Below are positions 640-58,320 of a stretch of DNA of 64,000 bases, in pieces. Each line of letters opens with the position of its first letter. The first letter of the stretch is position 1. Made by a program: the position numbers and the translations under genes. The notes below the pieces were generated by a model, which was not told the DNA's origin, ran no database searches, and saw nothing but the letters and a program-made list of their open reading frames with translations. This DNA is from Psammoneis japonica. Lineage: Eukaryota. The DNA is taken from contig QPGO01000201.1 of assembly GCA_008632985.1 (NCBI GenBank), forward strand, positions 1 through 64,000, written 5' to 3'.

Positions 640-2629
640 CATTATCATTCATGGTTGATAACCGTTTAGGAGATGCATTTTTATGAACGTTTGTACCTCT
701 TTAGCTACTGTGGGATCCCAGCCACAGAATGAAAGATGTCACGTTTGCTTTGCACCGTCAAAACAGCGAATCATCATCAGATTTACAGAAGAACAGTAGC
801 TAGAACCACCAAGATCAACAAAAGATGAGCTGCAAGCAAGCTAGGAAAGTTAGAGGAGTCGATCATTTTCGTAGGACGAGTGGAGAACAGAGCGCTCCTT
901 GAAATCACCCACATGGCACGGTGTGCTGTAGACTGCAGAAAGGCAAGCTCTTGTTCAATTTTGGTCCCGCTTTGCTCCTTGAAAAAGGCAGCGGACAACG
1001 GCATCAAACATGTTTCGTTAGCTTTAGCAGTCTTTCCAGAGCACTGTAGCTGCTGCTAGAGAGAGAGAGAGTCCATGCGCAATGGGTAGACTCCGTCGCA
1101 AGAAAGCATGATGTCATTGTGAGAAGAAAGGATGCATTGTTTCTGGCATCGGGACGGGAAGAAGAGGAATCGGAGATGATTGGATTGCGTTTCTCTGCTC
1201 TTCCTTCATCTCTGCACAAAGTGAGTGACCCACCTCTTGATCAACTGTTGACCAGTCCCACCACTCTGCAACTTGCACTTTGGCACTCTAGAGAGAGGAG
1301 CAAACACAGGAAATTCTGGGTCACAGGTGGTCTCCAGACAAAGCAGCCAAACTGCTCCACAGTTTTTTTCTTGAGATTTTCTGCCAGGCCCTGCTGCCAA
1401 CTCATGAAACAGCAAAACAACCTTTTCCTGTTGTTGCCAACACTGGCAGAGAACATTTGAGATGTGAACTCTGCTTCTCTGTTGACGACAATGGTGTCAT
1501 CACAGTTCTTGATGCTCTCCCATGCATCTGCTGTTTGTTTTGCTGTTGGTTGTGTGCAACTCAGCTTTTCTTTGTTCACGCACCAGAGCACTTGTTGGCT
1601 GTGTGCAAGAGAGCAGGGAGTGCAGCCCAGTGCCAGCTGCCCTGTGCAAAACAACAGATGTTGGCCACCACCATCAAAAATCATGGCACACCCACCACTG
1701 ACAACACCCACTCTAAGATTGCAACCTTGTGGCATTCCAAGAAGCTGTCAAAAATGTCACAGGCCACCCCATCTCTGACATTGGCAGTTGGCCTCATCAG
1801 CTGTTGCCACTTGACTTGCTGGACACAACCCTGCTCAAACCGCAGGGGACATCATTGCTGTCATTCATGATGCACTGAGGAAAACCACCATCTCCAAACA
1901 ACATGACCAGCACCATGGCTGATGGTGTGAATGGCAGGCAGTCCACCCCAACAAGAAGTCTGCTGCACCCCAACATGCCACACACTGGCAAGCACATTGA
2001 GCTTGAAAATGCACACTTGCTTTGCACTCTCTGGCTTCTGTGTGTGCTGCCAGTTGCTTGCAGAAAGCACCCAAGTTGGTCTTGCCAGCTGACACCCCAC
2101 CACCAGACCTCCCCCACGGAGTGGACAGCTGTGAACAAATTGAGGTGCCAGCAGCATCTTGGCTGTCCTGGCATCCAACAACTTTGCCTTGCTTGCACCA
2201 ACTTGCCAAGGACATTCCTTCTACAGCTTGAGCCACCCCCCACCCCCCAGCTGATCCTGCACAGTGGGCAATGATGCACGCTGTCACTGACAACAAACCC
2301 ATGAGCCCCCTTCAGGATCACACCAATCTGAGGCCAGCAGAGCTTGGCTGTGGTTTTGTGCATGCCTTTGGCGGCTGTCCTGGCAAGCACACATGAACTG
2401 AGAATCAGCAGAGCAGCTTGCACTTGCTGGCTGTGAAGGCTTGCACTGGGCAAACATGAGCACTCCTCACACCCCCCAAGCTGAGCTTGCCTGCATGAGC
2501 ATGTGTTCTTGCAACAATGGCACACACATGCAATGGCTGACAGCCACTTGCTTTGCTGTGCAGAAGAACTCAAGCAGACCTGCCTCAAACATGGGCATGC
2601 TGTGTGGAACCCACAGACTCTGACACACA

Positions 2630-3880
2630 CCAAAGAACTTGAAAATGAAGAATGCCATTGGTTGGCACAATTAAACAGCAATCAAAAACAGGGCATTTTT
2701 GTGAAAAAGAGCCTTGAAACCGTTTGAAATTTTGTGTGATCATCATTGTTCCTGTGCTTTTTTTGATGCTGGCAAATTTGCCAAGTTGGTTCAATTTCAT
2801 GTGCCAAGAGTGAATTCTTTTGTTCAAATGCCCTTGCTTTTTGGTGGAGGCAGAGAGAGGAAAGCATTTTGCTGGGGTGTTGCAGGCTTTTTAGCACATG
2901 AGCAAGTTTTCACTGTGTCATTTGGTTTGTCACACTTTTTTCATTGGCATGTTTTCATTTCCAGGAACCAAGGGAGCACAGATCGCATTGTTCTTGTTTG
3001 TGTTTTTTTGCTCAAATTGGGCAGGTGCAGTTATCCCATGGAAATTAATCGAATTACCAGAAGGAGAATTTGCAGCACCAACAAATGATATTAATACGAC
3101 TGTAGCACTTGCTTTGTGACTTGCCTGCTGTTGGCTCTTTGGGAAATCATTGTGTTTGTGGCCTTGCATGGGAAGGGATGCAAGCCCCTGTGACAGTTGC
3201 AAGGACATCTGTGTGGCTGCGTGCACTTTCCTTTGTGGCAAACTTGCACATTTTTTTGTGCAAACTGCAGCACACAACTTCAAAATGTGCCACAACTTTC
3301 AAAATGTGCACCACATGGGTGTGCACAATGTCTCTGCAAGACTCACAGTGCCAACTCCACACACACAAAAGCCCAGATGTGCATTTTCAAAATGAGCCAC
3401 AAAATTTTCAAAGTGCACATCTGGGTTTTTCATTGCACAGATTGCTGGCACAACCCCACGCGGCATCTGAGTTGAGACATTTTTTAAAAATTTCACCTGG
3501 GTGTTCAGGCATTTTTTTTGTGGGCACACATTTTGTGCGTGTGAAAAGCATGTGGGCTGGTGTGATGATTCATGCCAACAACAACCCAACCAGGTTGCAA
3601 ATGCAGTGGTTTTCCACAGAGCTTTTGTGCAGGTTCTTCCAGCAAAAAGGTTTGGACAACAATTTTTTAAAAAAATGCGCTGAAGCAGCTCCGCTTCTTC
3701 TGCCAGCTGATGCTCCACCAGAAGACATTGCAAAACCCTCATCACCAAGTTTCCAATTGCTTGGAATTTTTTCCAGCAAGTTGACAATTTCTTTGGTGAT
3801 TGGCGTTGTCAGCACAAACTTCAAATTTTTCAACTTTGGCCTCTGCACATGTTGCAGAAGATCTTGAATGAGTTGACATT
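2630..3880. other. Unclassified AT-richer insertion interrupting the copia integrase region
   Basis: Copia similarity is lost after ~2620 and resumes ~4150. The segment has A/T runs and repeated AAAATGTGC-like words (3270-3420) and contains the plastid fragment. No termini found. Confidence 0.35.
3012..3116 (+). pseudogene. atpI: Nuclear plastid DNA fragment (NUPT) of ATP synthase CF0 subunit IV/a
   Basis: Translates as [35 protein letters not shown], the conserved plastid AtpI segment. AT-rich plastid-like codons (TTA, GAA, AAT) and retained TpA. Confidence 0.9.
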
Positions 3881-6595
3881 GAAGTTGTGCAAATCTGCTG
3901 CTTCTGTCACAGCTGCTGGCTTGGCAACTGGTTTGGCTGCAACTCAACTCCTTTTTTGATCTGGGTCTTCAGAGTGCAACTCTGACAATGCCAGCCATGA
4001 CACCCCTGCATCTTTGGCAACTCAGCTGCTCCTGCTGTGGCATCCTTTGCTCCCAAAGATCCCATCTGTTTGGATTTGGTGGCAACTGTTGCAATGTCTT
4101 TTGTCCCATGTCTTGATGACTTGTTTGATGCACCGCTGCCCCACAGTGAGGGGCCACAAACCGTGCTTTGGTTTTGAGTTCTTTTGACTGTGATCCCACC
4201 ACACCATCAACCTGGATCTAGAGCAGGGAGCACACATCCCACAGTGGCAACCTGAGCTCAAACACAGCTGCTTGTTCTTGTCCATTGACTTTCATCATGT
4301 GACTGAAAATCAACCTGTGCTGTCCTGCGTGAAGGCTTCTCCTCTGCCCTCAACTCTGCAGGCCTGCCACAACTCTTCTTGGACCACAAGCAATGGCGAC
4401 CACATCCAATGCCAACTCAAGTCTATCACAGAGCCCACCATTTTGAATCTGTGTGCAAAACATGACATGACAAAACTTCTGGCTGAGGACAACTGGGAGA
4501 TGTTGGAAGATGGCGAGCTCATTCAACTGGGCATGTGTGAGAACCAACAAGGCATGTTTGGCCTGCCCACCCCTGCTCTGGTGCTGCAGTGTCCAACTGG
4601 TGAGTGTTGTTGCACCTCATTGAGAATGGCATGGAATGGGACAAGAAAGTTCCTTGCAGCATTTGTGGTGGAACCTCCCACTTAGGTTCTGTTAAGACAC
4701 TCAATCAAACCTGTGCCACACAATCAGCAGAATGACCAACAAACATCAGGGTGTTCTTTGCACTTGCAGCACCACTCAAGAGGCAGCAAACATGCTCATT
4801 GCACCACTGTCAGCAACACATTTGCAGAAACCCTGCCTCCCAAGTAAATCTTCTGCAGCATGCAAGCCAGCAAGGCATTTCAAAGCTGGTGGACCAATCA
4901 ACTTGGTCACCCCCTCTCCCATCACTGAGGACCAGCATGTGCTCCTGGCGGTGCTGCAAGCACTTGAAGAAGGTCGCCCAAAATCACCCAGGCTGAGGAG
5001 TGTGCACTCTGATTGTGTCATCTGCACTGGAAGTTTTCAATCTCAATCCTGCAGCACAGCACTGTGTGGTCAAGGGAAGAAGCACTTTTCTTGCAACAGG
5101 TCAATGACTCTGTCATTCCTGCTGACTCCAGTGAGACATGTCGCCGCATCTTGCACCTGTGACATCATGGACAAGAACATGGGAAGTGGGGACAACAAGA
5201 TCAAATGTCAGGGCTCACCTGAGCTTTTCCTTGGCTGTGATGTTGAGCAGACATGCAGCTGTGCCAGACTCCACAGCACATCCCATGCCAAATGAACTGT
5301 GCTGTGCCACCCACCGGCCAATGCCGGCAATGCTTCCCCTGCATCAAGCATCTCAACAAAACATCCACTCTTGTCAGTGCCATTGCCAACTGAGATGAGC
5401 TGTGTGGTTGCTGCTTGGGGGGATGACCCCAGTTTTGTGGTCACCAAGTTGAGCCAGTTTGTGTCTGACCCCCGCCAGGAGAGGCTCCGCACTTTGTGGC
5501 AGTGCAAGACATGTCCTGCAGCATCTCTGTGCAACCACTGCCAGGGTTTGGTCTCACCTGCTGGTGCATGGCTTCCAACAAGCACCCCCCATTTGCACCT
5601 CCACGATGGTTTCCCATGACAAAGTTGCTCAACCACTGCAGGCAGAATCTCGTCCCCCATGTGAGTGTGCTGGTGGCTGCAAAGACTCTGGCTGGGCAGC
5701 CCAACCACATCATTGTTGCATTTGAAAATGAGCGCAGTTTGTTGCAGAACATCAGATGCAGGCAAGATGGCATTGCATTTGCACTCCATTTTGGATGAAC
5801 TGTCTGTTCCACAGATGCAGCCTGCCCTCATCCACGAGAGCAACACCTGGGCCTCAAGTCTGCACAAGTGCCCCAACCCTGCTCAATGGACCTGCCATCA
5901 TGCCGACACACCACATGGGTGCCTTTTGCACTGAAAGACTGGGTCAAACAAGATCTGGTCAAACCAGACAGGATTTGGGCTGCTGCCAGCTGCAGTGACA
6001 CCCTTGTGCTCGGGCTTTGCACTGCTGCACCACCTCCAGCGTCACCCTTGTGCTCCAGCTCTGTTTTTGTCTCCCGTCATTTGGGTGCAGGCAGTTTTTT
6101 GTGCTGGGCATCACCGACTGCAGTGCACACATGTTGCAGCACCCAGGCAGCAGGTGGTGGTGTGGCAACAGCAAACCCCAGCACTCTGCACCAGCTGAAT
6201 GGCACTCCCATTCTCACATGCAGGAAGGAGTCTCGGTCAAAAACTGCCGCGCCGACATGTTTGCGAGCTTTCCCGTGCGGCCTGCGCTGTTCGGCTCACA
6301 CCCAAAATGGCCCGGCGCAGAAAAAACAACAGAGCAAGCATCATCGTACCGTGCACTCTGCATACGTATTGTTCTCTACGACGGCATGGGCATCATGCGG
6401 CAACAACACTCGCTGAACAAACTTCGAGGGCAATGGCGCAGTCGATCCGTCTTATTCACCCTTAATCTTCGTCGAACTTCTGAACAACGCCTAAAATCAG
6501 CAAAGTGCTTCGTTCTCATCACCACCAAGCCTCCTCTAGTCTTGCTGAAGTTTTGAGAGTAAGGCCTTCACGCACTCTACTCTTTCTTAAAAATC

Positions 6596-17890: not shown

Positions 17891-20080
17891 TTCATCTCGC
17901 GCACGTAGTGCGTGGTTATTAGACTGGCTGTAGGTGTGTGTGCATGTGCGAGGTGTGTAGAACATACGTAGCCCTAGAATTACCACTGAGTGAGTTGACA
18001 TGCGGTGGATTTCCGCCGGTGCACAATCTACCGGTGCGTGGTCTACATGGAACATATATTTATGTCGGTCTCTGAGGCTTTTACACAACATAAAATTTTC
18101 TTGTGATTTTTGTGAGCACACATGCAACCATTCAAAAAAGTGAGGAACACCCCGAAACAAATTTTCGAATCTGAACAAAAAAAATTTCTTTTCAACGGTC
18201 CGAACAGAGTCGCCCCGAAGCGCTTCTCAAAACATCTTCAGATTGGATGTGGTGAAACATGACACTGCAGGCAAAACAGAGCAGCTGTCGGCAAAATGGA
18301 GCTCAGCTTGATTTCAGCAGGATTCTGTGCACATTTCAATGAACACTCAACCACGCACAGCTGCACCTGGCAATTTTCGTGCCCGCTGGCTCTTGATTGA
18401 AACGAGGTCTCGCCACTCACTTTTCCCGTGGAAAACAAAATCCCGTCAAACACAAAACTCATCGTCTCGTCTCGACATCGCTTTCGACACGATGAAGATT
18501 GCACCCATTGCATCTGCACTTGTCCTCCTCTTTTCTGTTGCTTCCTTTCCTGTGACCACTCATCGTCTGGTGGGACAAGCTGCGACAGATCCAAAGGAGC
18601 AAGAGCTTGTTGAGAAGGCGCTCTTTTCTGACGGACCCGACACTCCACCGGAAGCTCCAGAACCTGCATCGCCCGCATCGACCCACTCTGCCAAATCTCA
18701 AGCTTCTTTGATTGATGAGTGGAGCAAGCGCATTCAAAATGGTGCTGCTTTTTCTCTTCCTGTCGTTCATGGCTCTCTCGATGTGAGGAACTGTCGCCCC
18801 TGCGATGCTTTCATGATGCTGCCGGGTGTGCCCAATTTTGGATGCCAGCATGCTCCGGCTCAAGCTTTTTTGTCTCCCCCCCACAATCATTGGATGTCGG
18901 CTCCTTGCTTTCGTCCACCTCCTGCTCCCCATCACATGCCGCCACACACACATTTTGGATCACCGCATGAGCGCCATTCTCATGGATCGCAGGATGCAGC
19001 ATTTGGAACCCCCGACTCGTTTTCAACCTCTGCACAGCGCAGAAGAGAACGAAACTGAAAGAGACGTGCTGAGTGCTGAGCGGAGGATCAAGCCGCAAAA
19101 GACGTCAAGCAGCAAAAGCGAGAGTGTGACACCCGGCATCTCAGCAGACATCCCGAGTTTGCTCTTCCCGTCAATCACATTGAGATTTCATCAACGCAAG
19201 ATTTGGAGGTTTCAAACATCACTGATCCCAAGTTTCGACACAGAACTTGACAAGTGGCTGGTGCCATTGACGATTCTTCTGACAGAGAGGTGAAATGACA
19301 GCACACTTTGAGTCGCAAGTGTTTCCATTTTGTTGGTCCCACTTTGTCGAATTTTTTTGCTCATGACTCTGCTTCATCTGTTCTTGCTCATCCAGATCTG
19401 CCAGCTGCCATTGATTCCTCCACCAACAATCACAGAGTTGCGAATGGAAGGAAGGAGCAATCTTGAGCACAAGCACAAGAAAGCCTGTCAACTCAAGAAT
19501 GGCAAGAAACTGCAAGGGCTCAACAACGCCAATCAAATGCAGAAGCCAGATTTTTCAAAGGAACGTCAATGGCAGAAGCAAGACTGCAAAACCGCCAAGC
19601 AACGAAACAAGCAAACAGACAAAAAAGGCAATCGATGGACGATGACCCTTCCTCCTTGTCCTCATCCTCATCATTGTCATCTGCTTTGTCCTCTTCTGAT
19701 GACCCTCCAGCTCCACCCTCTTCCCTTGATGAATGTTTTGAAGCTTGCAGGGATGGCCGGCATCCAGGTGTCAATCTGGAAGACCACCCCAATGTAAGAG
19801 ACATGATGTTGATTGTCGTCACTTTGCTCTTCAATTGTTCTCACTCTTGTTTGACTGGCCCACATGTGAAAGCTTGTCAAGATGAATTTGTGGACGGAGT
19901 TTCAAAGACAGAAATGATGCGGTGTGCCACTTGCAAGAAGCGCTGGTTCAACATGACCGTGAACAAGTCCGACCTGCAGCAGTGCCTTGCTTGTTCTCCA
20001 AGGATGTCAAGGAGCATGGCTTGAGTCGTCTCTCTGCAGCAAAGGACATGGACATCTGTGCCAAGGGACGTCCTGCACAC

Positions 20081-20469
20081 GATGGGTTCCAGTCCCAGGT
20101 GGGACTTTTTGTGACATTTGCCCCGCAGAATTCTACGTGCAAGCTCTGCAGTTCGTACTCTGGTCAATGGATGTGTTTGTCTTCGTCATAAAACAAACGG
20201 CCAAGTTTGTGGTGCACACATCCCTGTTCGTACTCGAAGTTTAGGACGATGCGCCTGCCCTGCGCCATTCTTAAGACACTCGAGAATGGCGCAGAAGAAA
20301 AAAATGTTAAAAGTTGTTGAATGGATCGCCTGACAATTGCACCATAAAATGACACAAAATTTTGCCAAAATCATGTAGAAATGCATGTGCGCGACATGCG
20401 ACGCGATTCAAAAAACTGTCGATGTCACAGTTCAGTGGTGCGAGGTCCCACCTAGACCTGGAACGCGTC
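20081..20469. mobile_element. MITE family A, copy 1 (approx. 25-bp TIR, 4-bp TSD ACAC) inserted in RepHel
   Basis: Left end GATGGGTTCCAGTCCCAGGTGGGAC, right end GTCCCACCTAGACCTGGAACGCGTC. ACAC at 20077-20080 and 20470-20473. Removing the element plus one TSD restores frame PAHLPKPSEVEEMLIA. Confidence 0.88.
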
Positions 20470-23400
20470 ACACCTGCCCAAGCCATCTGAGGTTGAAGAG
20501 ATGCTCATTGCTTGTGCTCACACTGTCATGAAGTGCTGTCGTCTTCAGTCCGGGCAAGTCGGGCACAAAGGGTCCGTTGTGAATCTTGAAAAGGACACAG
20601 ACAAAGTCATTGTGAGCCTGCCACTCAAGGTTTCTGACTTGCCAGTTGTTTTTGTCCTCTGAAAGCCAAACCAAAGGACACCAAATGGATGCAAAGACTT
20701 TCAGGTTCGCTGCGACAATGTCACAGAATGGCTTGTCTGGCTGAAGGAAAATCATCTGGGCCATCATGATGTCGACATTGACCTGGAAAATCTTTTGCTT
20801 CTTCCAGAGGATGGTTCAGTGGCAGACTCCATTTCTTCCATTTCAGATGAGAGTGAGCTGGCAGGTGATGCAAGTGAGGACCAAGACGCTGCTGCCAGTG
20901 GTCCAGAACAAGGTGGGGCAAGCGGACAGGAGGGCGAGGATGTCGATCTGGGCATCTGCCATCTGTCCCTCATCCAGGTCAGCAGCACGCCGAAATTTCA
21001 AAGACTCTCCGCAATCAATTTGATCCTGCTTCCGTCGTCCAAGAGATTGGAAACAACGGCCAGCCCGTCAATGACTGCACCTTTCCTCAGCTTCAAAGCC
21101 TGGCCTTTTCCACTCTCTTCCCGCGTGGCGACGGGGATGTCATGCACAACGATCGCCACGTCAATGTGGCCATGGTGGAGGCAAACAAGCACTTGCTTCA
21201 GCACGGCTGTTTTGACAACAAGGAGGAGGGAGAGTGGGTGCATCTGTTTGCACGCCACAATCGGTGGATGCATTGGGCCGAGAATGCTCTGCTGCTGCTC
21301 GACATCGTCACCAGGAACAAAAGAAAATGTGCCTGCAAAAAAAGTGCCCAGAAGATGCACAGCTCACCAAGGAAGAGCTGAAGCATGCAGTGCAAGAGAA
21401 CGGGCTGCACTTCAAAGAAATTGTTTCCAACATGCAAAAGTTCAATGCGAATGTCCCAGGTGGTGACTCACATTTCTGCAAGAAGAAGAAGGAGCTCAAG
21501 GCTCTGACAGACCAGTGCGGAATGCCCACATTGTGGTTTGCTCTTTCAGCCACCGACAACCACTGGGCGGACCTCAGTGCCTTGTTGGTTTGCAACTCTG
21601 ACTGTGAAGAGTTTTCAGAAGAAGAGAAAGCCACCTGTCATTGCAAGGCTGTCCGAGATGACCCTCACATTGTTGATGCCTTCTTTCAAGAACGGGTCAA
21701 TTTGATGATGAAGAGCTTCTTTGGAAAGAATGGCATGAAAACAAGCTGGACTTGGTTTTGGATCGAATGCCAAGCCCGCGGTGCCGCTCATGTTCACGGA
21801 TGTTTGCGACTGGAGGCTGACCCGGGGCCATCAGACCTGTCACAGGTTGTTTTGGAAGGAAGATTGGCTGCTTTGAAACTGTGCCAACAAGGTCTGCTGG
21901 ATGAGGATGACGATTTTGCCAAGGAGGGTTGTGAACTGGACATGTGTGAAGAGGAGTTTGAATGCAAAGATGACGAGGAGCTTTCTTTTGAACAGATGCT
22001 GCAAGCTGTCAGAGATGGAAAGGAGGCACAAGACATGGTTGTCACCTTTGATGATTTTCTTGTCTCTGCGTTTCACCCCAGCCCTCCAGAAGATGCTGCA
22101 ACCGACGAGCGGCTGGAGTCCACCAAGTTTTGTCCCGGGGTGGATGGTGGAGTGCACCCAAGCAATGACAGGCCTCAAGATGTGCTGGAGATGACAAGAG
22201 ATGACCGCACTGGCAACTGCTGCAATCTGTGCAACACGGTGGAACGGCATGCATGCAAGCCCGGCGGCTGCTGTGACCGCAACAAGTCCAAGTGCGACAA
22301 GGCAAAAGCAGGTGAACACATTTTGGACTGTTGCTTTGGACATCCTTTGCATCTTTCAAGAATTTCTCGTCTGGTTGTTCTAGAGAAGCTTGTCAAAAAC
22401 AAAGCTGGAGAGACCTGAAAAGTCTCAAGAATGGAAATGGCATCGGCACGCAACGACAAGTGGATCAACAGTCATTGCATCCCAGTGTTCGAGGTTTGGA
22501 GAGCCAACATTGATTTCCGACTTGTTGCAGATGTGCCGGTGAGGTTTTTGGCACATGAGCAAGCATGTCTCCAAGTCTGAATCCAGCATGACGTCCATGC
22601 AAATGACCGCAATGGTTCGCAAAACAGTGGAGCAGAAAATCAATGATGGATGCAGTGCACAGGCAGTGTTGAAGAGCACAATGGCCAAGCTTTTGGGTGT
22701 GTCTAGTTTTGATTTGATCCTTGTGTGACTTTACATTTCCACTCACAGTGTGTTGTTCATTCTTTGAATGAATCAAAATGGTCGCCCCAAACAGGCAAGC
22801 GAATGGTTTCCAAACAGGAGACGTGCCATCTCATTTTAAGTTTGCCTCTTGTCTCTTGCTCCCACACCTTTGTCACTGTCAATCTCAAAAATGCCTCCAG
22901 GCAAGTTGACCTGGAGGAGTCGGATGATCCTTCTGATGGAGATGTTGGCGCCGATGCAGGAGCGGATTCTGCTGCAATGCCGACGGTCGTTGATGCACAT
23001 GCTGCACGCCTCAACCAAGAAGCCTGGGCTGATTGTTCAGTTTTTGCAGCATTTGAGCCAGGACTCAGAGACCTTGCTCCACAAGAATTTGCCGCCAGAT
23101 TCTACGTTGGCAAGTCCGGAAAGCACAAGAAGAAAATCCGCCCCCACCAGAAACCAAACACGGCAGCTGTTTTTGCACCTCGAGTTCCAAGTGCTCCTGG
23201 TGGTCGCAACTTTGTCAAGTGCTGCAAGCACTCATTGATCAAGCATTGACCATGGAGTGGCACACTCGAATCTGCTTGGGGTGGCACCAACGCATCCAAT
23301 GATGACATCATTCATGCTTGGAGCCAACATGCTCTGTTTCTGATGTGACAAGGTCGACAAATTCCTGGTTTCCTTCAACGCGAGATTAAATCAAGCTTGT

Positions 23401-25533: not shown

Positions 25534-25682
25534 TGTTGGCATCCACTTGAGTCACCCAGCAAGGTGTTGGCATCCACTTGAGTCACCCAGTGAGGTGCAG
25601 GTGTCCACTTGAGCCACCCAGCAAGGTGTTGGCATCCGCTTGAGCTGCCTCGTGCCTCATGTGATGTGGCACCCGCTTGAAC
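25534..25682 (+). repeat. 31-bp tandem repeat, about 4-5 degenerate units
   Basis: TGTTGGCATCCACTTGAGTCACCCAGCAAGG at 25534, with variants at 25565, 25596 and 25627 and a partial unit near 25667. Confidence 0.85.
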
Positions 25683-25686
25683 CGCC

Positions 25687-34649: not shown

Positions 34650-37600
34650 GTTAAGTGAAATGGAAGATAGAAAAGGAGAAATGAGAAGATAGAAGAGGAG
34701 AAATCAGTTCAAAGGAGCAGAGATTTGGCAAGATTGATTTGACAAGAAGGAGAAGAGAGAACAAGTGGAACAGATCACAATTTGTGGTGAAAGGGTGATT
34801 TGAAAAATGCAGGTTCGCATTTTGCAGTGCCATGGACTGAGAGTCAGCAACTTTGGCAACTGGATTGCACAACATGACATGCATTAACAGTTTGTGAAAA
34901 TGACCCACCTGAGAGCAAGAGACCATGTTCTTTGTCCAGGAGCATCAGCAAGAGAGAGAAGATTTTGTCATTTTCTTCACAAAGCTGATGTTGCTGGAGA
35001 AAACACTCATGGGCAAATGGGGGGTTGCAGTCATGAAGCAACTGTCATTGACATTGGTGACAAGCTCAGCAAGAATTCAGATTGTGTCAGCAGAAAGAAA
35101 ACAGTCACTCAGGTGCTGATGGTTGGTGCCAAAGGAGTTGAAGTCACAAAAGAAGCACACAAGCTCAGCTGGCACAAAATCAAACAACACAAGACATTTG
35201 GGAGAGTGCCCACACTGTGGGCCAACATGACTGTGGCAGCAAGCAGCACTGGTGGAGAAAGTGGCAGCCAGCTTTTAAGATTGAGAAATGGTTGAAAAAA
35301 GATCGCTCAGAACAGGAGGACATCACAGATGACTGTCAAGACTTCTGCGCATGGCTGGAGGAGTTGTGCGTGCTCTCCAGCACACTCAAGCAGCGGGAGA
35401 CATGTCAATGCCATGCTGACAAAGAGATCAAACTGGAGCACAAGTGCCGTGAACCATGGCACAAGTGCAGTGAGCCAGAGTTGAAAAATCAAGGACCAAA
35501 GTTAGAGAACTTTTGTCAAAAATGGCCAGAAGGACATGGGGCTGTGTGGTGAGACCATTGCTTCCCCCATGGATGGGTGCAAGACTTTCAAGAAGAAGTG
35601 CAGAGAGAAAGGGAGTGGAGGGTGGGTGGACCACCTGCAGGCTCCAGGTTCAAAAAAATCAATGAGAGCACAAAAAAACCCCTTGCCATGCAGGCCAGTG
35701 GGAGCAAGCACATGTTCTGGGCAAGTGTGAAAAAATGCTGTGAGAAGGGCCACAAAGCCAACAAGAATAACAGCAGCAAGTGTTGTGGCTGAAGAAGTCT
35801 GAGTGTGACTGCCACAAGTGCTGCAAATGGAGAGACTCAAGGCAAAAAATTGCTGGAGCAAGAGAAAGAAAAATGACCATGACAAAAGAAGTCAAACAAG
35901 GTGGCTTTGTGAATCTTTGAGGTTGAGGACAAGATTGAGGAGTGAGGCAAAATGGTGCCTCAATTTCTTTCTTGAATGGGTCAGATTGGAAGCACATTCT
36001 CAAGTCAAGAAGAACGACACTTCCAAAGTCAAGCTGGGGTGGTTGGTGTGTGGCAGCTCTTTTTCATGCTGTGCTTTGAAGAGAGTGCAGTTTTGGCGAG
36101 TGTGCATCTCATGCACTGTCATGGTGTGAATGGTGTGAAATGTCAGAAGAGAGTGCGCATGACAGAACAGGCTCAAAAATGTTCTTGACTCACTTGACAA
36201 GAAAGAAATTGACCATGATGACAACACACCATTGCCAGCCAGCTGCGCTTCTAGCTGCTGCTTGCTCCAACAATGGCAATGCAAAGGACAGCTGCAAGCT
36301 CATGTGTTTGTCACAACAAAATCCAAGTTGCAATGCCGGAGGTCATTGTTGAGAAACAGCACACACAGATTTGTCCAACACCTGTTCAACTGATGACAAG
36401 GAAGAAGTTTTGAACATTGAACTTCTTTGGTCATTGTCAATCAGATTCAGATGGCACGCCAGCTCTGTGGCACCTGATTTGCCAGGTGGAATGGGAAAAA
36501 ATGGCAAGACTCTGTCACCAGGATCTGGATGCATGGCTCACATCAAGTGCACACTGGAGGGCATGAGGAACCTTTGAGAAGCAAACAAAGAGATTGCACT
36601 TGCATGAACAAGCCAAATCTGGGAAACTGTGCAGTGATTGCAGAGATGTGCACTCAGCCAAATCGTTTTCCACCAAAAGACCTCATGTGAAGCAGGAGGA
36701 CTTCATTGAGCTCAAAGCAAAAGGCTGGATGACCAAGTGAAATGAGCTCAAGGCCAAGCTTCAAGATGAGGCCAAGGAAATGCAAGATGGGAGCACCATG
36801 CTGTTCAGCATTGCTCTGGCAATGTTCACGTCACACCAAAGTCTCTGCCAGCTGCAGTGTGTTCAGTCTTGATGGCAATGCTTGCAAAAGCCCAATGTTG
36901 CACAAGCAGATGATGTTTGTGACAACAACTCAGCTCTGGGCAATGTCCCCCCCCCCGATGTGTCATTTTCCTGGCAGGTGACAATGGCAAAGATGTGGAC
37001 AGCACTGGCTCACAAATTGAGGAAAATGGGAGAGCCCAAGACAACACAGATGACTCTGGTCTTGGGAGTGTGGTGATGGGTGATGATGACATGGGTTGAG
37101 ACACACAAGTGCAGGTCAGCTGAGTCAGGAGGTGCAATGTGGTGGAGCACATGGCAACGCAATGCCAGAGCACAAGTCAAAAGCAACAAACATGCACAAT
37201 CTCCAGTGCACAGGCTTTGGCCAAGCAAGAAGACAAACTTGAGAGGAGACTGATGTCGCTGAGGCCAAGGAAGTCAATGTGGTGCTTGGATGCACCAACC
37301 CATTGAAAATGACAGAGAGGCAATGTTGCACAGAAACAAAAAGACAAACAAGGGCAAAAAACTTGAAAAAAGAGTGCAAAACGAGTTTTTGACCAAGTGA
37401 CTGGATTGTAAAGAGAAAAGCAGAAAGACTTGAAAGAAGCTAAAAAGTGAGTGTGCTCTTGCCTGTCAAGGAGAACGTGTGCACAAAAGAAGAGAGACTG
37501 CATGCTGTTAGAAAGAAGCCAAGATGATGCTGAGTTTGTTGCAATGAGCTGTTTGCTCCAGCACCTGCAGCCCAAAAGTGCAGCACTGGGCAGTTTTGTT

Positions 37601-38470
37601 GCAGATGGTGACCAATGAGTTTTGGTTGGGGGTTTCTAAACACAAGTGTGGCTGGTGGCTCAGCTTGTGCTTGTTTGCTGCCATTTTGGAAAAGACATTG
37701 TGAGCACAAGGGCAAGGTGTGTGATGTTGCAGATGCTTGCTCCTGCTTGGAAAAGCACAGAGCAGGGATGACGGCCATGTTTGTCAAGAGATTCTTGTGG
37801 AAGCAGCAAAGAAGGGCAGAGCTCAGAGCTCAGCCCAGCAGGAGCAAGATGTGTCCTTCTTGTGCACTGTGCTGTCAAAACAAAGAGAGTGCATTGAAGA
37901 GGGTGGCATTGATGCACACCAGCAATGGGCCCACCTGTGGAAGGATGTGTTTGCCTTTGAGGAGCTTCTTGCTGCTGACTCTTGTGAATGACAAAGCAGT
38001 TTTTGCACAGTGCAAGCTGCACACCCAGAGGAAACCCAAGGATTCTGAGACACCAGGGGTGCCAGGAGAGATGTTTTGATGAAAGCAGGTGAGGGTCACA
38101 AGCCTCCTCATGGGTCAAAGTGGACGCATCACTTTGTGGTTGGAGACAGACCAACAATTTTGTGCGTGTGCTGTGTTGAGGGGGTGTCGGGCACAGATGA
38201 CACATTGTTTGCTCAATCTGACAAAGCCATGTTGAAAGTGCTGAACAGACAGTTGGCGCATTTGAATGTTGCTTTCACATGATGAAGTCAAGGACACCAC
38301 AGGAATGGCTCGGGTCCATTTTTGCACATGTTTGATGGCTCCTGCCTCTGATCAAGTGGAAGTGGGCGGCACACAAAAAACAACCACAAGAGCACTCCAA
38401 GTCATTTTGTGCCTTTGGATGGAATGTTGTTGATGAGCATCATTGTTTTTGGCAGCGAACAAACTAGTTG
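34650..38470. other. TpA- and CpG-depleted relic of unidentified coding-like or repetitive DNA
   Basis: About 8 TpA in ~3.6 kb by hand count. Purine-skewed plus strand with broken Tyr-free ORFs. No family recognised. Confidence 0.55.
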
Positions 38471-43450: not shown

Positions 43451-46400
43451 CTAAAGGGTACCGGCAGCTTTCCGTTCCTTGTACTCCTGAAAGCTAAGTC
43501 CCTTTCTAACGCGCGTGATTTTGGGTTTGTTCGAGTTCAATCCAAAGATACCAAGGGACGAACCGTCATGTGACTGGGCCAAGACTTCTTCATCAATTGC
43601 AAACTGGTGACTTTCAACATCTGCCTTCTGGATTTCATCATGATCGTCTCTTGTTGAAGCTGCCGGAGTTGTAGCCGCAGCTGTCACCGCTTTGGAAGCA
43701 TCCGCTTCATCTCGTGTTTCCTTGCTGGTCTCCTCCTCGTCTTTCTTGCTTTGTCCCACTTCCCACAATATCTTCGGTTTCACCTTGCGTCGTGCATAGG
43801 GATTGAATTTTGCCGTACCAGCAGACTTGCTCTTGTCAGACTTGTACGATTCAAAGTCTGCGGCTTGATTCACAAGAGCGGCGCGTTCATTCACCTTGGC
43901 CCAGTCGCGGTCCCTGGCACGCTTGGTTAGCCGGCGTTTACGGCTCTTGGCTAATTCTGCAACACGCTCTTCTTCCTGCAATCGTTCTGCAATACGTTTT
44001 TAGCCTCTTCCAACGAGACCTCAGCTTCGTCAACCTCCTTTTCCAATGCGTTGATGGCCGGGTCATTGTCGTCGCCACTGAACTCCAGCAGTGCCTTTTT
44101 CGCTTCACCCAGGCGACGCTGTGCTTCATCGACACCGTTCTTTGCTGCTTGCACCGCAATCTTGCTTCGGGTCTGCTCCAAGCCAATATTGGCTAATCCT
44201 TTGCCTCTCTTCTTACGAGCTTCAATGGCTTTTTCAATATCTTCGTTGGTGTACTTGTAGTTGTGAACGACCTGGTCCAGATTCTTGCGCAACTTCTTGG
44301 CCGGCTCTTGCTCAGCACGGCCATGCGAGCGCCTTTTGGATCTCAACGTATTTCTGCATGTCCTCGTCGGTCGGACGAGAGTCGGAAACCAAATACATGG
44401 GGAATTCCTTTTCGTTCTTTCCAATCTTTAGACGCAACGCCTTGTTTGTGTAGATCTAAAAGCACGGTGCATAATCAAATGAGATGATGTGTAAAAATGC
44501 GTTGCTGCAAGGCTATAATACGAAAGCAAGACTTACTGGTTTGGATGCCTTGTTGAGGGCCGGGAACTTGTATTCGGATTTGCTCTTCACCACGTCTACA
44601 ACCTGACACAACCGGTAACATTTCTTCCCATCTACTTCACCGATACCTAACCGAACAAAGCAATTCATAACAACTTGTTCAAAGTACGGTTCATTGCACC
44701 ACTGCGCAAGTCGTCGTCTCGGAATGGTAATTTTGATGTAGTCGGCAAGTTCGGCATCGGGTCCAACATGCTCCACTATCCCGCGAGCGTCTTCGGTTTC
44801 AGACTCGGACGACGAAGACGACGAGTCATCCTTGAGCTGCTTGGATGTTTTGGCTGTCGACGTCTTTTTCTTTTGCCAAGGTTTCACTACGAAGCTCTTC
44901 TCTTCATAGTCGTCATCTGAATCGTCATCTTCATCGCCAAAGTCCAAATCACTATCATCCTCATCCTCTTCTTCCTCCTCCTTTCTCTCCAAGAGATTCT
45001 TGCGTTCTTCACGAAAGGTCTTGAGCGCGTCTGCCTTTTTCTTCTTGACGCCCTTGCATCGCGATTGCGCTGCGATTCGCGAGAAGCCGACAACTTGGCG
45101 GCAAGAGCTGCATCTGCCGCTTCTTGCTTTTTGGTCTTTTTGGACTTTTTCTTCGTGTTGCCGCCGCAGCCTTGCGCTCTTCTCGTTCCTTGCGCCTGTG
45201 TTACGAAAACAACGGGAGTATCAGAAACAAAACGAACGAGCTTGTCATTCACAAATGTGCATTCCTGGACACTTACTTGGACTCTCTCAAGGCAATTCTC
45301 ATATCTTGTGCCGCCTTTAGCTTGTCAAAACGTTCGCCCAGTATAGCTTCACGTTCAATTTCTGGCAACGAGTCCAAATACTTTTGATCCGCATCATCCT
45401 TCACCAGGGTTGTGTGTCAAAGGTTTCCATATCCAATTCCTGTTCTTCCTCGCTGCTGGAGGAAGATACCTCCATGTCGTCTGCTGCGGCGGCGGGTGCT
45501 GCTGCTGCGGGAGGTTCTGCAACCTTTTTCTGTGGTGGTGGTGGCGGCGGGGTAGCTTCCTTTTCCGGCTCGGGACTAGTTGATACAACGAAAAGAGCAG
45601 ATGTCATAAGCATGTATTTGGAGAAAGGGATATGCAACTACGAGAAAGAAACAACTTACGCGGCTTCAGCGGCTGGCGGGGGTCGACGAAGGCTCTTGCC
45701 CCACCCGGAGACGCAGTGACCACTTGTGGTTTTGGTGCTTCTTCTTCCTCTTCCTCCTCCTCGTCTGAATCCACATCCATGGCATCGTCCTCTTCTTCCT
45801 CCTCTTCTGATGCAACGGACTGAGCATCAAGAGTCCACAATTCGCAAAACAAAATCAAGGTGAGTGACGGTATGAAACCGAGTGAAAACTATAGCAAACA
45901 AAGACGAGACTGCACGTACGGTGGACGACGCAATTGTTTCCCTCCAGAGAAAGCAGGTGGTGCTGGTTGTGCCGGTTCCTCTTCTTCTTCACTCTCTTCC
46001 TCCGATTCGCTCTCGGGTAAAGGACGCAGTTGTTTCCCTCCACTACGACTGTGCTGCATTCTCATGAGTGACTTTCCGCCACCACGCTGAACAACATTGA
46101 CTTGATGATGCGTTTCTTCTTCCTCCTCTTCTTCTTCCTCCTCCTCATCACTGTCGCTGTCCGGTTCTCTGTTTGGTAAAGAGCATTTAGTTGAGTATGA
46201 TTGTGAGTAACATAATGCAGTAGATCCCACGAGCTCCGCACAGCTCATAAACGGTACTCACGCGACACGCAGCTGCTTCCCACCACTGGGACGAAAATAC
46301 TTTCCACCACGATAGACTGGAGGTGCTTCTTCCTCCTCTTCTTCTTCACTCGAAGACTCCTCTTCCTCTTCGGATTCTTGAGGCGGAGGTCTCACGAGTT

Positions 46401-51646: not shown

Positions 51647-51736
51647 TACAAACCAACTTGGATAAATATTTATCTTTCTAGAGACCGGGTTAAAGAGACG
51701 CAATTGAAATAGAACTCAACAAATACAGAATGTGCA

Positions 51737-53490: not shown

Positions 53491-54459
53491 TTAGAACCAC
53501 TCTTGCTCACTTCGTATATTGATTGCAAGATATCCTTGTGAGGTGCGAATGATACGCATGGAATCATCCAAATAGAGAATTTCAAACTGGCCAAACGGTG
53601 CGCTCAAAGGACCTTTCCATTCCACAGGCTTGGTTTCCAATATTCCAACCGGTAGTCCGTCATTGCGAATAGCATCCATCATGGCATTGCCACTTTCACG
53701 AATAGCATCAAACATAGAATTTCCTGTACTAGTAGTACTCTCTGCAGTTTTCGTGTTGGAGGACGTTTCCTCGTCTGCCTTTCCCACCAAATTGAGTCCA
53801 ACCAATTTGAGATTCACCTTGGTGGGATCTTCGGGAGTCGACACTCCTTCTGTACAAACCTTTTGAAGCACTCGAGACTTGTCTGTACCGCTAAGGGGGA
53901 AACTCGCTGCCCAATCAGGACGACGCCATTCAATCACATTGTTAATCTGCGGCGGATTGCATTCTTGTCCAATGCGTCCCAACTTGGCGGACGCAAGAGG
54001 TCCACCAAAGTCAAGAGACGTGATATCAGGTGCATCTGTGTAAACAAGAGTCCACTTTCCTTCCAGAGTCGGACCCGATGGTTCCTTTGGTACCGTTTCG
54101 TAGTATGCGGACGCTGGCTCTTCAGTAGTCATGTATGGAGACAATTCCTTGACGAGTTTCTTGACACGGTCTCGATCATCAGCTGACGCTTCGAAACCCC
54201 GCTTGGTCGAGTCAGCAATGTCTAGAATCTCTTGCTTCAGACGAGCGGCTTGAGGGTCTACGTCGTGGACCGGAAGAGCAACGTGTTCTTCTTCCTGATC
54301 TTCGCTGGTGTCACTCGGGAATTCATTTGTATACCGTAAACGAGTGCCTGAAGCAGGAGAAAAAGAGAAACTCGATGAAACCAAGGGAGCGGGAAGAACA
54401 GCAAACCCAGCTGTTGACAGAGGCAGAGAAAGGTACAAGAAACTGGAAATGATCTTCAT
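53491..54459 (-). CDS. PAP/fibrillin family plastid lipid-associated protein
   Basis: Bipartite presequence (STAG-FAV), LKQEIL...TKRGF, LEGKWTLVYT, GQFEILYLDDSMRIIRT. Confidence 0.92.
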   Translation of the reverse strand: MKIISSFLYLSLPLSTAGFAVLPAPLVSSSFSFSPASGTRLRYTNEFPSDTSEDQEEEHVALPVHDVDPQAARLKQEILDIADSTKRGFEASADDRDRVKKLVKELSPYMTTEEPASAYYETVPKEPSGPTLEGKWTLVYTDAPDITSLDFGGPLASAKLGRIGQECNPPQINNVIEWRRPDWAASFPLSGTDKSRVLQKVCTEGVSTPEDPTKVNLKLVGLNLVGKADEETSSNTKTAESTTSTGNSMFDAIRESGNAMMDAIRNDGLPVGILETKPVEWKGPLSAPFGQFEILYLDDSMRIIRTSQGYLAINIRSEQEWF

Positions 54460-57400
54460 AGTGCTAGTAGCAATGCATCAAGACGATGGAGGATGGATAG
54501 AGAAGTGAGAATGCTAAAAAGAGCCCCAATGCCATGCAGAACGTGTCATCGGTGCGAACACCTCACTGCTGCCTGCAGAAAATCAATCTTCGAAAGATTT
54601 CCCGCCATTTTTTGACACCTGCCACGTCAGCAGTCATTACAACATCGCGGCTGCACTTAGACATAAATTCTATTGCCCTCCAAATGTCTTTGAAACAACG
54701 TAACTCTGGATTTGTCTCCGCCGCTGTCAAACCTGCCAACAAGATCACAGCAGTGTCAACCATGAGCTTCCCTCTCAAAATGCATTGCAACGACAGCTTC
54801 ATGTGCATTTGATGCTTTTGATCATCACTTGGAAAAAAGTTGTTTGCACTTCGCCCTGCCAAACACACAGCAGCCACAGAGGGCAAACAGCTTGTGATGT
54901 TGAGTCGAGTTGATGGCTCTGACAATGGATCAATGTGAGCACGTGAAAAGATCTTGCACAGACAGGCCCCAATGCAATGTGGCTTGAGCATCAATTTTGC
55001 AGAATCAGTGGAGAGAGTGAGGAGCGAGGTGTGGATGACGATGGCGGGAGACCGCACCTGGCAGAGAGTCTCTGCACCTCCATGCTGCCCAGCTGAGGTG
55101 CAAAACGTCATTCCATGGAAATCAGACAATGCACGGTGGAGGACAAGAGAAAACTGCTGACAATCATCAAACCAAAACCTCTTTTTCTCACTTGCTGCTC
55201 CTGCCATCTGTGTGGTTTCTTGCTCAGCAAAAAAATGACAAGATGACGCAGCTGCAGCTGGCTCCTGGAGGTGCCAGACAAACCAGCTCCAGCTGGAAAC
55301 CCACAGAGTTGAGATCCCCACCCAGACAGAGTGCAATGGCAGTCAGCTGGAAAAGAAGCTTGCCACAGCTCCATGCTCCATTCCTTGTGGGGCTCAGCTG
55401 TTGTGCCCGCTGTGTGCAGCGTTTTTCCTTTTCTCAAGCAAAGGGACTCAGACAAGCCCATGACTCATTTGGAAAGGACAGTCTGTGCTCTGAAGCTTGT
55501 GAGGTTGTCTTGCCACAGCTCTGTGCAAGTGAGGCAAGCCCCCTGCAGTGTGTGGCAGCTTGGCTCCAACAAGTTGGTGAGTCAAATGGCCCTGTGTGAC
55601 ATGAGCAGCACCTTGCCCGCAATCTGCTCTCTCAGAGCTTTTTTTTGCCCATTTGATGATCTTTGTTGCCCAACAACAAATGCAAAGAGGAGCTTCTCAT
55701 GTTTTTTGCTGTGAAATGTCCTCGCAAGAAGATTGCCATGGGTGGACAATTGAAGCTCTCTTGGTCGCTGATGGGGGAAACAGAAAGAGGTGCAGCGTGT
55801 TGCCGCCATGAAGAGAAAGAAATGTGAATCCTTTGGTGCTTGAATCAAGGGATGGTTGAGGGGTTTTGACATGTCAAAAAAGCTGGAGGCACCGCTGTTG
55901 CTCAGGTGATGGTTGGGAGAGGAGAGTGCGTCATTGTCAAGGCCAAAATGGAAAAGAAAAGAAAAGAAGAACAACAGGGGTGCCTTTGAAAATGTCAGGG
56001 AAGAGCACGCTGGTTGTTGCTGTTGTCAGACATCCAACCAGGACAGAGCATTTGCAAGAGGGGTGTGCCGTTGTTGTTGGCAGATGTCAGATGGGAGGGC
56101 AGCAAGCTTGTGAGGTGTGCAGCGCGGAAAAAAGGACAGATTTGGCAGAAACAGAGCAAAACAACTGGGAGAGAGCTTGCAAATGGAAGGAATGCACAGG
56201 TGACTTAAATTGAGCAAAAAAGATTCAATTGGTTGTGACTTGAAAACTGTCAAGAAACAAAATTGACATCCACGTAAATTGAAGATCTGTGGAAATCATC
56301 AGCACAAATGTGAAAATTCTTTTAATTGTTGATGAGCAATGCTCTGTGGTTGAGCATGGAAACATGTTGCAGATGTTTGGCAAATTTTTGCCAAGGTGTG
56401 CCAGTGGCACCTGACCATTGGTCCACAAAGAACATGGCTGAAGGTGCATTTTCAAAGCACCGCCTGTTCAGCTGAGCACACAAGAAACTTCTTCATGACA
56501 GCTGCTTTGCAAGTGCACAGATTTTTCACATTTTGTTGGCTGTTTTTTGGAGTTGATTTGAAAAACAAGGTCAGCTCCTCCTGCGGCTGGTGTGCTGCAG
56601 CAGATTTTAGAGGACAAGACACTTGGGTCATTTTGGACAAATCACTTGTGTGCTGCAAGCAAGTGCCTCTGAAGCAGGAGAAAAAGAGCAACTCAATGAA
56701 GCCAAAGGAGCAGGAAGAACAGCAAACCCAGTTGTTGACAGAGGCAGAGAAAGGTGATTGAAACTGGAAATGATCTTCATGGTGCCAGCAGCACAACAGC
56801 CGATGTCACATTGTGTCATTGGTGTGAACAGCTCACTCATTTGAAAGATTCCCCCCACCATTTTTTGACACACCTGCCACATCAGCAGTCATTGCAATGT
56901 TGCACACCTGAACTTAGACACTGGCCCCACTGTCCCAATGTCTTTGACACAAATGACGCAATTTGTCTCCGCCCCTGTCAGACACATGCTGGCAGAACAC
57001 CGCTGCCACCAACCACAAGCTTTCCTTGCCAAACACATTGCAGCAAGAGCTGTTTTTGTTTCAAATGCAAATGCCACAACCTCCCTGTGCCACAGCGACC
57101 AATTGCTGTGGCTTTGTTGCTTTTGATCTTCTGCAAAAAATGAAGAACAACAGTGGCTGGCAAGTCCATCCGAGGCACTGGGTCAAGCAGCTCTTGCTGC
57201 TGGCAGATCGGCGCCAGCATGTGAAAGGATGACAGACATGTTGGTGCCAGCACAAAATGCCTTGCATGATGCTGATTGTGTGGACTCAATGGAGAGCTGC
57301 TCTTTGTGGAGTTTTGAGGAGAGGAAATCTCCAAAAGCCCAAGAAGGGAGCCAGAAACAAGAAGACCGACACCGAAAAGCCCCCCCCCCCCCCCCCCCAC

Positions 57401-58320
57401 CTTTGCATGGCCTGACCAAGATGCAAAATGTTGCTCAAAGAAAAGTGCACACTGCACAGTGCTGGAGGACAAAAGGAAACTGCCGGCACTCTTTGAAAAA
57501 AAACGACAAACCATTTTTCTCTGTGCAAGAGAAGAGCTGCACACCAGCCCTTCTTGGTGCAGTGCTGCACAGGATGGCTCAATGCAAAATGGTGGTTTGT
57601 TGACCAGCTAGACATGCCAGTCAACAAGCTCCAGCTTTGAGCTAAAAAAACCCAGATCTGTTGGGCAGAGCATCCTTGGAGGAACATCGCCTCTCTGGAC
57701 TCTTCTGGCATCACAACTTCTTCGGAGCTGTGCCCACTTGTTGCTGCCTGAGAGTCAACAAAGTGGTGTGCTGGTGCATGCCTTCAACATGACTCATCAC
57801 AGCTGCCTGACAGCATTGAAATTCTGTGATGTGCAGGAAAATCTCACATGGAGGCACACAGCTCAAAAGAGATGCTTGTCCCCACTCAGCAAGAGATGAG
57901 ATGGCTTGCCATCACAGCCAGGCGCAGGGGTGACGGCAACGAGGAATTGTTGGCATGCTGCAACTCTGTTTGTTCCATCCCTTGTGGGGTCCTTTCATCA
58001 ATGACAGCCCTGCCATGTTTCTTCTCTTGAGGAAAGCAACTCAGACAAATCCATGGCTGGTTTGGAAAGAGGACCTTTTGCACTCCAAAGCTTGCACACT
58101 GCAGTCATCTTGCCACAGCTATCTGTGCAAGACACTGCACACTGTGGTGTGTAGTGGCTTGATTCCAAGAAGTCAAGCCAAACAGCTTTTTATTGTGAGC
58201 AACATCTTGTCCAATTGTCTTGCAAAACAGACGACATTCTGCTTTTGGCCTTCTTCTCATGTTTTTCCCTTTTGTGGATCTTTGTTGCCCAATGACAAGT
58301 CCAAGAAGGGTATGACGACG
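54320..58320. repeat. Degenerate tandem segmental duplication (offset ~2.3 kb), including a dead copy of the fibrillin 5' end at ~56640-56780
   Basis: 54328-54472 aligns with 56647-56793; 54543-54662 with 56813-56920; ~55135 with ~57460; ~55658 with ~58277. The copy translates MKIISSFNHLSLPLSTTGFAVLPAPLAS. Confidence 0.85.

Follow-up and report, generated by a model that had tools for sequence, protein, structure and literature searches.

Loss of TpA in repeat-like DNA of Psammoneis japonica depends on the two bases 3' of the adenine

A 64,000-nucleotide stretch of genomic DNA from the alga Psammoneis japonica (contig QPGO01000201.1 of assembly GCA_008632985.1, positions 1 to 64,000 of the forward strand; hereafter the window) contains four blocks, A to D, in which the dinucleotide TA has nearly disappeared. 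The footprint consists of TA to TG and TA to CA changes on both strands, laid over CpG decay. The data support a faster change of the A of TpA when a pyrimidine follows, that is, TAY to TGY, which reads as RTA to RCA on the other strand (Y, pyrimidine; R, purine). The preference amounts to at least about 3-fold, possibly more. It is graded and not absolute, since YTAR sites themselves are down to about 22% of their background density. The base at +2 matters as much as the base at +1, and TARA is largely spared. A preference for TAY targets had been proposed earlier from hand counts in the same sequence (the original prediction). Its core is upheld by the surviving sites, by the products of the change and by the fate of tyrosine codons, but a plain one-position purine/pyrimidine rule does not describe the data, given the graded effect at +1 and the contribution of +2.

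The window has a G+C content of 48% and densely packed genes. It was segmented with a two-state hidden Markov model (HMM) whose sole input was whether each T precedes an A. The probability that a T is followed by A is 0.011 for depleted and 0.154 for background DNA, a 14-fold depletion, and the segment borders are sharp. The model returned six long depleted segments in four blocks, together with two unmutated islands (3032-3103 and 20134-20453). Depleted DNA amounts to 26,363 non-N bases and background to 36,996 bases. Measured per 2 kb, the observed-to-expected ratio (O/E) of TA is 0.04-0.12 in the four blocks versus 0.39-0.73 elsewhere. Host genes recognised by Pfam (a ubiquitin hydrolase, an aldo-keto reductase, a sulfatase, a methyltransferase and a proteasome subunit) all lie in background DNA. 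The footprint is thus confined to mobile DNA as far as it can be identified: block B carries a Helitron and copies of a miniature inverted-repeat transposable element (MITE), the host genes are normal and the borders are sharp. Segments and other features are listed in Table 1.

Compared with the neighbouring genes, of the dinucleotides read, TA (O/E 0.04-0.05) and CG are lost in the blocks, CA/TG and GC are increased and AT is decreased. Per 1000, CA/TG stands at 72 in background and at 99-113 in the blocks, GC at 57 and 75-77, and AT at 64.5 versus 54 and 49; AA/TT does not change (80.9 versus 79.2 and 82.3). The gain of GC and the loss of AT are explained by TAC to TGC and TAT to TGT changes, which yield them, whereas CpG decay would run in the opposite direction. 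The mass balance over both strands is nearly closed, with a TG excess of 1760 versus 1793 predicted from the loss of TA and CpG. TG and CA excesses are alike in every block, indicating that both strands were acted upon. CpG O/E is 0.17 in blocks A, C and D versus 0.59 in block B, with a TA O/E of 0.04-0.05 in all of them. Equal TA loss with unequal CpG loss shows that the two kinds of decay are uncoupled in time or extent.

Surviving TAs were divided into YTAR sites, half-sites (YTAY or RTAR) and RTAY sites. The HMM segments retain 78 survivors (41 YTAR, 35 half-sites and 2 RTAY), compared with 260, 779 and 462, respectively, among 1501 background TAs (chi2 69.1, p = 1e-15; Fisher's test for YTAR, p = 8.7e-12). 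This count includes a short doubtful TA-poor stretch at 44779-45201, which was left out of later counts; these use the 75 survivors of the long segments. With hand-set borders and the islands included, YTAR accounts for 49 of 96 survivors and RTAY for 6, versus 252 and 458 of the 1483 TAs outside (p = 2.6e-13). YTAR enrichment is significant block by block (p = 8e-5, 1e-5, 2e-4 and 1.6e-3) as well as against a flat null of 25% (p = 5e-8). The most extreme tetramers are TTAA (16 survivors, 65 in background) and ATAT (0 survivors, 98 in background). A count of all NTAN tetramers in depleted versus background DNA had been suggested as a check of the original prediction, and in this window the survivors indeed deviate from background, being rich in YTAR and poor in RTAY. 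The earlier hand counts were mostly reproduced: 9 of 12 survivors are YTAR in 1220-6240 without 3032-3103, and 6 of 7 in 54800-58100. In 34800-38450 the seven YTAR sites were counted correctly, but the total is nine instead of eight, one RTAR site having been missed. None of the 28 survivors in these three stretches is RTAY, as claimed, and the TTAG said to be kept in both copies of a duplication stands in aligned columns at 54658 and 56915.

Relative to background, the density of YTAR is 0.22, that of half-sites 0.063 and that of RTAY 0.006. These values are near multiplicative, as expected from independent hits on the two strands. Fitted to the survivors, a Poisson model yields apparent cumulative hazards per strand of 0.72 before a purine (k_R) and 2.23 before a pyrimidine (k_Y), a ratio of 3.1 (likelihood-ratio test, chi2 71.3, p = 3e-17). 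Block B has a ratio of 2.5 (p = 3e-7), and blocks A, C and D together have one of 4.2 (p = 1e-12). When the four bases at +1 are separated, the hazards are 0.47 for A, 1.04 for G, 1.80 for C and 3.07 for T. The four-base model improves on the purine/pyrimidine model overall (p = 4e-5), with the gain coming from block B (p = 0.39 in blocks A, C and D).

For the second flank position, each of the 75 survivors was read from both strands, giving 150 half-sites. A stands at +2 in 59% of them versus 28% of the half-sites in background DNA (n = 2968; p = 7e-15). Further out, there is a weak bias at +3 and a marginal one at +5 (p = 0.034), with none at +4 or +6. Adding +2 to the Poisson model improves it by chi2 41.6 (3 degrees of freedom, p = 5e-9; block B, p = 6e-8; blocks A, C and D, p = 0.005). 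Sites reading TARA on both strands have a survival of 0.51 (13 survivors, 36 background sites), those reading TARA on one strand 0.165 (44 survivors, 376 background sites) and those reading it on neither 0.024 (18 survivors, 1072 background sites). Surviving TAC has a purine at +2 in 27 of 28 cases, although the reading of G at +2 is confounded by CpG decay, and decay of TACG to TACA may explain part of this bias.

Survivors alone cannot separate a process that hits an A before a pyrimidine from its mirror image, in which the A is hit after R-T. The two differ in what they leave at half-sites: YTGY (RCAR on the other strand) if TAY is the target, RTGR (YCAY) under the mirror model. With background and half the CpG loss subtracted, YTGY is in excess by 443 and RTGR by 35, which gives YTGY a share of 0.93 (bootstrap 0.79-1.14), and the two excesses together equal the number of half-sites lost. 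Favoured and unfavoured products in the six sub-blocks are 123 versus -6, 68 versus 16, 53 versus 24, 70 versus 15, 48 versus 0 and 86 versus -15. Surviving CpGs in blocks A, C and D show a weak flank effect of their own (RCGY 0.24, half-class 0.18, YCGR 0.14). By hand reckoning, the corresponding CpG strand split of about 58:42 would still leave, in these three blocks, about 233 YTGY (408-175) versus about 4 RTGR (130-126). Conversion yields are 0.67 (0.55-0.80) for a pyrimidine at +1 and 0.16 (0.06-0.25) for a purine. Yields at the level of tetramers or of +1 and +2 combined are distorted by neighbouring TA and CpG changes, and only grouped yields were used. With a purine at +1, the TG yield is 0.41 (0.24-0.58) when +2 is not A and -0.29 (-0.53 to -0.08) when it is A, the negative value being a warning that genic DNA is an imperfect proxy for the original make-up of the elements.

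A further line of evidence is provided by the dead Helitron of block B. Thirty-five homologues were aligned to it by tblastn, and positions with at least 30% tyrosine among at least five aligned homologues were examined. None of the 21 such positions still encodes tyrosine; 12 are now cysteine and 9 histidine. Codons preceded by a pyrimidine (YTAY) became cysteine in all nine cases, whereas those preceded by a purine (RTAY) became cysteine in three and histidine in nine (Fisher's test, p = 0.0011). With a stricter cut of at least 50% tyrosine, the cysteine to histidine ratios are 5:0 after a pyrimidine versus 2:5 after a purine (p = 0.028), and with the two nearest homologues alone they are 7:0 versus 3:7 (p = 0.0098). 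Tyrosine codons are the fastest targets, ending as cysteine, or as histidine after a purine.

The mirror model, A to G at RTA, was considered as a candidate and is ruled out by the survivors, the product asymmetry and the fate of the tyrosine codons taken together.

Several observations weigh against the flank preference or limit its precision. The estimates of its size disagree, survivors giving about 3-fold and products at least 4-fold, which suggests that the blocks are of mixed age or that some survivors were newly created. One such new TA is seen directly, as the young MITE copy has TG at the site of the ATAC at 26812. For all rates, the original composition of the elements was approximated by that of genic DNA nearby. 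The approximation is imperfect, some tetramer-level yields being negative or above one (TGTG 2.49, TGTA -2.88). The difference between T and C at +1 is significant in block B only. Aligned copies within the window give a small and mixed sample. The original prediction had read TTAC to TTGC, GTAA to GCAA and GTAG to GCAG in the duplication, with exceptions, and all of this is present; by eye, these three of five half-sites fit and two (ATAG to ATGG, CTAT to CCAC) do not. Among MITE copies, also by eye, two of four fit (CTAC to CTGC, GTAG to GCAG) and two are misfits (CTAC to CCAC, GTAG to GTGG). The pooled score of 5 of 9 half-sites could arise under a 3-fold preference, whereas a very strong preference would not fit it. 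Codon tests that do without homologues are negative in both frames tried: in the Helitron frame, cysteine codons follow a pyrimidine in 22 cases and a purine in 24, and histidine codons in 21 and 20 (p = 0.83); in an orphan open frame of block B the figures are 22 and 27 for cysteine and 24 and 24 for histidine (p = 0.69). The null result in the Helitron is due to native histidines (14 after a pyrimidine, 8 after a purine) and codons of other origin, which swamp the 21 tyrosine-derived ones; we assume a similar dilution by native codons in the orphan frame. Finally, all results come from one 64-kb window, and the evidence is a sequence footprint: no enzyme, inosine or ongoing mutation was observed.

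Differences between copies were also collected from Logan contigs of one sample (set X1). Most of the 457 differences are transitions that distinguish paralogous copies (A>G 100, T>C 104, C>T 87, G>A 86, with 4-10 for each transversion). Double differences of TG versus CA are ambiguous in this comparison, as the ancestor may have been TA or CG.

As a whole, the observations are quite likely to be explained by a both-strand, TpA-specific process of A:T to G:C mutation that acted on mobile and other repeat-like DNA, of which the TA-poor blocks would consist, and whose flank preference is read out by the YTAR survivors. What the footprint shows directly is the direction of change, the action on both strands, the requirement for a 5' T and the influence of positions +1 and +2. 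On either strand, the A of 5'-T-A-3' would change to G, at least about 3-fold faster before a pyrimidine, with an apparent order of T > C > G > A at +1. The slowest case would be an A followed by a purine and then by A (TARA). Survival would require that both strands are slow, leaving YTAR and especially TYTARA, while RTAY, fast on both strands, would almost vanish. A plausible agent is a DNA adenine deaminase that targets silenced repeat chromatin and converts A to inosine, read as G, although we would put its chances slightly below even. In such an enzyme a 3' purine, and an A beyond it, may stack on the target A and hinder base flipping.

Two other explanations concern the step at which the rule arises and the base that is attacked, and we consider either of them unlikely. 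The mutator might hit all TAs alike, the rule being made afterwards by context-dependent repair, such as hypoxanthine excision or correction of I:T or G:T pairs that works better beside purines. Since sequence records the net outcome only, all results fit this equally well, and nothing bears on it directly; in our judgement, however, an effect as large as that seen over two positions, with RTAY at 2 of 78 versus 462 of 1501, looks more like a recognition motif. Similarly improbable is a chemistry acting on the T of R-T-A and turning it to C, for example because a modified thymine would mispair with G. TA is self-complementary and the same base pair is involved, so that all counts are identical under attack on either base, but we know of no enzyme that makes clean T to C transitions. 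The available part of a preprint on Bigelowiella natans, discussed below, also favours adenine deamination (10.64898/2026.01.13.699255).

The remaining alternatives are contradicted by more specific features of the blocks. Survivors could be mostly new TAs, made from CA and TG by C to T or G to A changes after the mutator had stopped; the ATAC at 26812 is one, and half-site survivors exceed what a strong preference alone would leave. Yet only 23% of the in-block TG and CA sites, the null for new TAs, have YR flanks, whereas 41 of 75 survivors (55%) are YTAR (p = 7e-9), and the TARA classes differ from this null at p = 7e-32. Back-mutation of the favoured products (RCAN, NTGY) would moreover yield sites other than YTAR, and the product and tyrosine codon tests do not depend on survivors, making this origin very unlikely. 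Polymerase eta makes A to G errors at WA motifs (W, A or T), of which TA is one, and error-prone repair synthesis of this type on methylated repeat DNA could have been triggered as patch repair in the three of four blocks with a CpG O/E of 0.17. AA/TT is not depleted, however, so the 5' base is T and not W, and block B lost TA equally despite its CpG O/E of 0.59; we therefore give this source scant credence. If element RNA had been edited by an ADAR-like enzyme and then reverse-transcribed into DNA, the preference for a 5' U, which is listed for ADARs in the accessible part of a review table, would be shared. This route is extremely improbable here: TG and CA excesses are equal on both strands of every block, the best-studied block is a Helitron, a DNA transposon, and the 5'UAG given as a hotspot in the same table corresponds to TAG, which is among the spared contexts.

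The closest known system is that of Bigelowiella natans (Mettrop et al., bioRxiv 10.64898/2026.01.13.699255). In the accessible portion of this preprint, integrated viral or transposon-like DNA is described as changing almost exclusively by A to G and T to C, all at TpA, with TpG and CpA as products; only foreign or mobile DNA is affected and the remaining genome is normal (10.64898/2026.01.13.699255). TpA-depleted sequences enriched in CpA and TpG are reported there to be rich in transposon domains, and an adenine deaminase is proposed (10.64898/2026.01.13.699255). As in B. natans, changes at A:T pairs in P. japonica are essentially limited to TA to TG and TA to CA, mobile DNA is affected and neighbouring genes are normal. 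The two cases differ in organism and in time scale, a long-term footprint here versus live mutation there. The words 'context', 'flanking' and 'trinucleotide' are absent from the main text of the preprint, whose section 7 deals with the TpA dinucleotide only (10.64898/2026.01.13.699255). Searches of open-access full texts and bioRxiv found no TA-erasing mutation in diatoms and no flank rule, the Bigelowiella preprint being the only related report. New here are the tests on products and on codons, the rejection of the mirror model, the gradation among the bases at +1 and the TARA effect at +2.

Repeat-induced point mutation (RIP) of ascomycete fungi is similar in that it causes dinucleotide-specific transitions on both strands, is confined to repeats and mobile DNA with sharp borders, and inactivates element genes. 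In contrast to P. japonica, where TA is destroyed (O/E 0.04-0.05) and CA/TG enriched, RIP turns CpA into TpA and thereby enriches TA. For the present footprint, a dependence on duplication is not shown. The natural target of TadA/ADAT enzymes, A34, follows U33. The footprint resembles the action of the tRNA adenosine deaminases TadA and ADAT2-ADAT3 in its A to G outcome, which A to I chemistry would give, and in the T before A (TA is lost, AA is not). At +1, C is favoured over purines, making TAC a favoured context, but TAT is affected no less strongly (hazards at +1 of 3.07 for T and 1.80 for C). The accessible part of the review table gives 5'ACG as the target of TadA/ADAT2. The signature may thus be called compatible with, but not specific to, bacterial TadA. 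The statement in the original prediction that TadA-derived DNA editors prefer TA was not confirmed, since the accessible part of a paper on amphioxus ADAT2 credits ABE7.10, ABEmax and ABE8e with accepting a wide range of contexts around adenine. The same part gives GAA as the DNA adenine context of the amphioxus enzyme, unlike the obligatory 5' T found here. ADAR shares the A to G outcome and the U before A, but, with a 5'UAG hotspot in the part of the review table that was accessible, it differs from the present case, where TAG and TAA are slow, both DNA strands are equally affected and a DNA transposon is hit.

TpA-erasing hypermutation has been reported only recently, in one 2026 preprint on another alga, and a reproducible flank signature helps to separate candidate mechanisms. 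The present one speaks against ADAR-type editing, WA-type polymerase error and the GAA preference of amphioxus ADAT2, the one natural ADAT2 reported to act on DNA. Should the same flank rule hold among the 231 hypermutation events recorded in mutation-accumulation lines of Bigelowiella, both systems would be tied to one enzyme family. We raise as a tentative idea, less probable than not by some distance, that the motif of 5' T, 3' pyrimidine and spared TARA is the fingerprint of a eukaryotic adenine deaminase that acts on chromosomal DNA in defence against repeats and viruses and is common to distant algae, including P. japonica and the chlorarachniophyte Bigelowiella. TAYB and TARA (B, any base but A) form a substrate pair on which candidate deaminases can be compared. 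For annotation, the rule predicts which TAs are left in old repeats, and an intact RTAY marks a young insertion.

Table 1. Segments and features of the window, in order of position (survivor classes as defined in the text)
Feature	Position	Strand	Content and evidence
Block A left	1092..3031		TA- and CpG-depleted; 5 TA/500 T; 4 YTAR, 1 half-site
Unmutated island in block A	3032..3103	+	7 TA/18 T (HMM), ATAT and ATAC included
Block A right	3109..6344		TA-depleted; 7 TA/826 T; 5 YTAR, 2 half-sites
Block B left	18096..20132		TA-depleted; 1 TA/512 T (HMM)
Unmutated MITE-like insert, ~390 bp, inverted ends	20080..20469	+	self-BLAST; HMM island 20134-20453
Block B main	20459..32416		TA-depleted, mildly CpG-depleted; 43 TA/2959 T; 19 YTAR, 22 half-sites, 2 RTAY
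Dead Helitron Rep/helicase gene	20876..25137	+	Pfam Helitron_like_N (E 1e-21), DUF6570
Orphan 1282-codon open frame	28383..32228	-	inside block B; 0 stops versus 20-70 in the other five frames
Block C	34704..38450		TA- and CpG-depleted; 9 TA/823 T; 7 YTAR, 2 half-sites
Short doubtful TA-poor stretch	44779..45201		3 TA/145 T (HMM); within normal genic DNA
Duplication copy 1	54320..54798	+	mostly unmutated; left edge of block D
Block D	54705..58300		TA- and CpG-depleted; 10 TA/866 T; 6 YTAR, 4 half-sites
Duplication copy 2	56639..57051	+	mutated; TAs of copy 1 read TG or CA (alignment)

A Pfam scan of 114 open frames of the depleted blocks recognised the Helitron alone, blocks A, C and D being too decayed. 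In tblastn, a 1688-residue homologue (P0002) aligns to the Helitron with its residues 3-1409. A run of 574 N at 24113-24686 cuts through the helicase region and represents either a gap in the assembly or a stretch that was withheld. Rfam gave no match within the window and no credible one around an island. The TA-poor stretch at 44779-45201 may reflect chance or local composition.

The MITE-like insert, which lies within the dead Helitron region, keeps 10 TAs, two GTAC among them. Degenerate, mutated copies of it were found by self-BLAST at 25686-25936, 26761-26887, 27039-27100 and 27264-27361. Contig depth is about 43,000 over the insert versus about 55-60 in single-copy bins, indicating that it is highly repeated. 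One contig runs straight from 20075 to 20469, with the insert absent. It has the look of a recent arrival, either not yet reached by the mutator or not among its targets.

The orphan open frame on the reverse strand of block B encodes 1 tyrosine, 49 cysteines and 48 histidines and has a low-complexity, coiled-coil-like appearance. It has no Pfam match, and a search of 5.8 billion proteins found no relative. Possible origins are an element gene with many mutations and a gene captured from the host.

The island in block A belongs to a fragment of plastid atpI at about 2988-3116 (forward strand), which the original prediction had called a NUPT (nuclear plastid DNA). A PDB sequence search links the fragment to subunit a of chloroplast ATP synthase (E 2.7e-16 over 43 residues). 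No TA occurs in the left 44 bases of the fragment, which read TTG and GTG, while the right part, 3032-3103, keeps seven TAs. In AT-rich plastid DNA, TTA and GTA are expected at such positions. The fragment may be partly mutated, with a mutation border inside it.

The motif GGGTGTAA and its complement occur six times within 25973-26761 in block B, at 25973, 25985, 26685 and in the area of 26761, and in reverse at 26034 and 26708. These repeats supply much of the survival of GTAA/TTAC half-sites in block B, and the motif is probably a repeated sub-element that arose later than the DNA around it.

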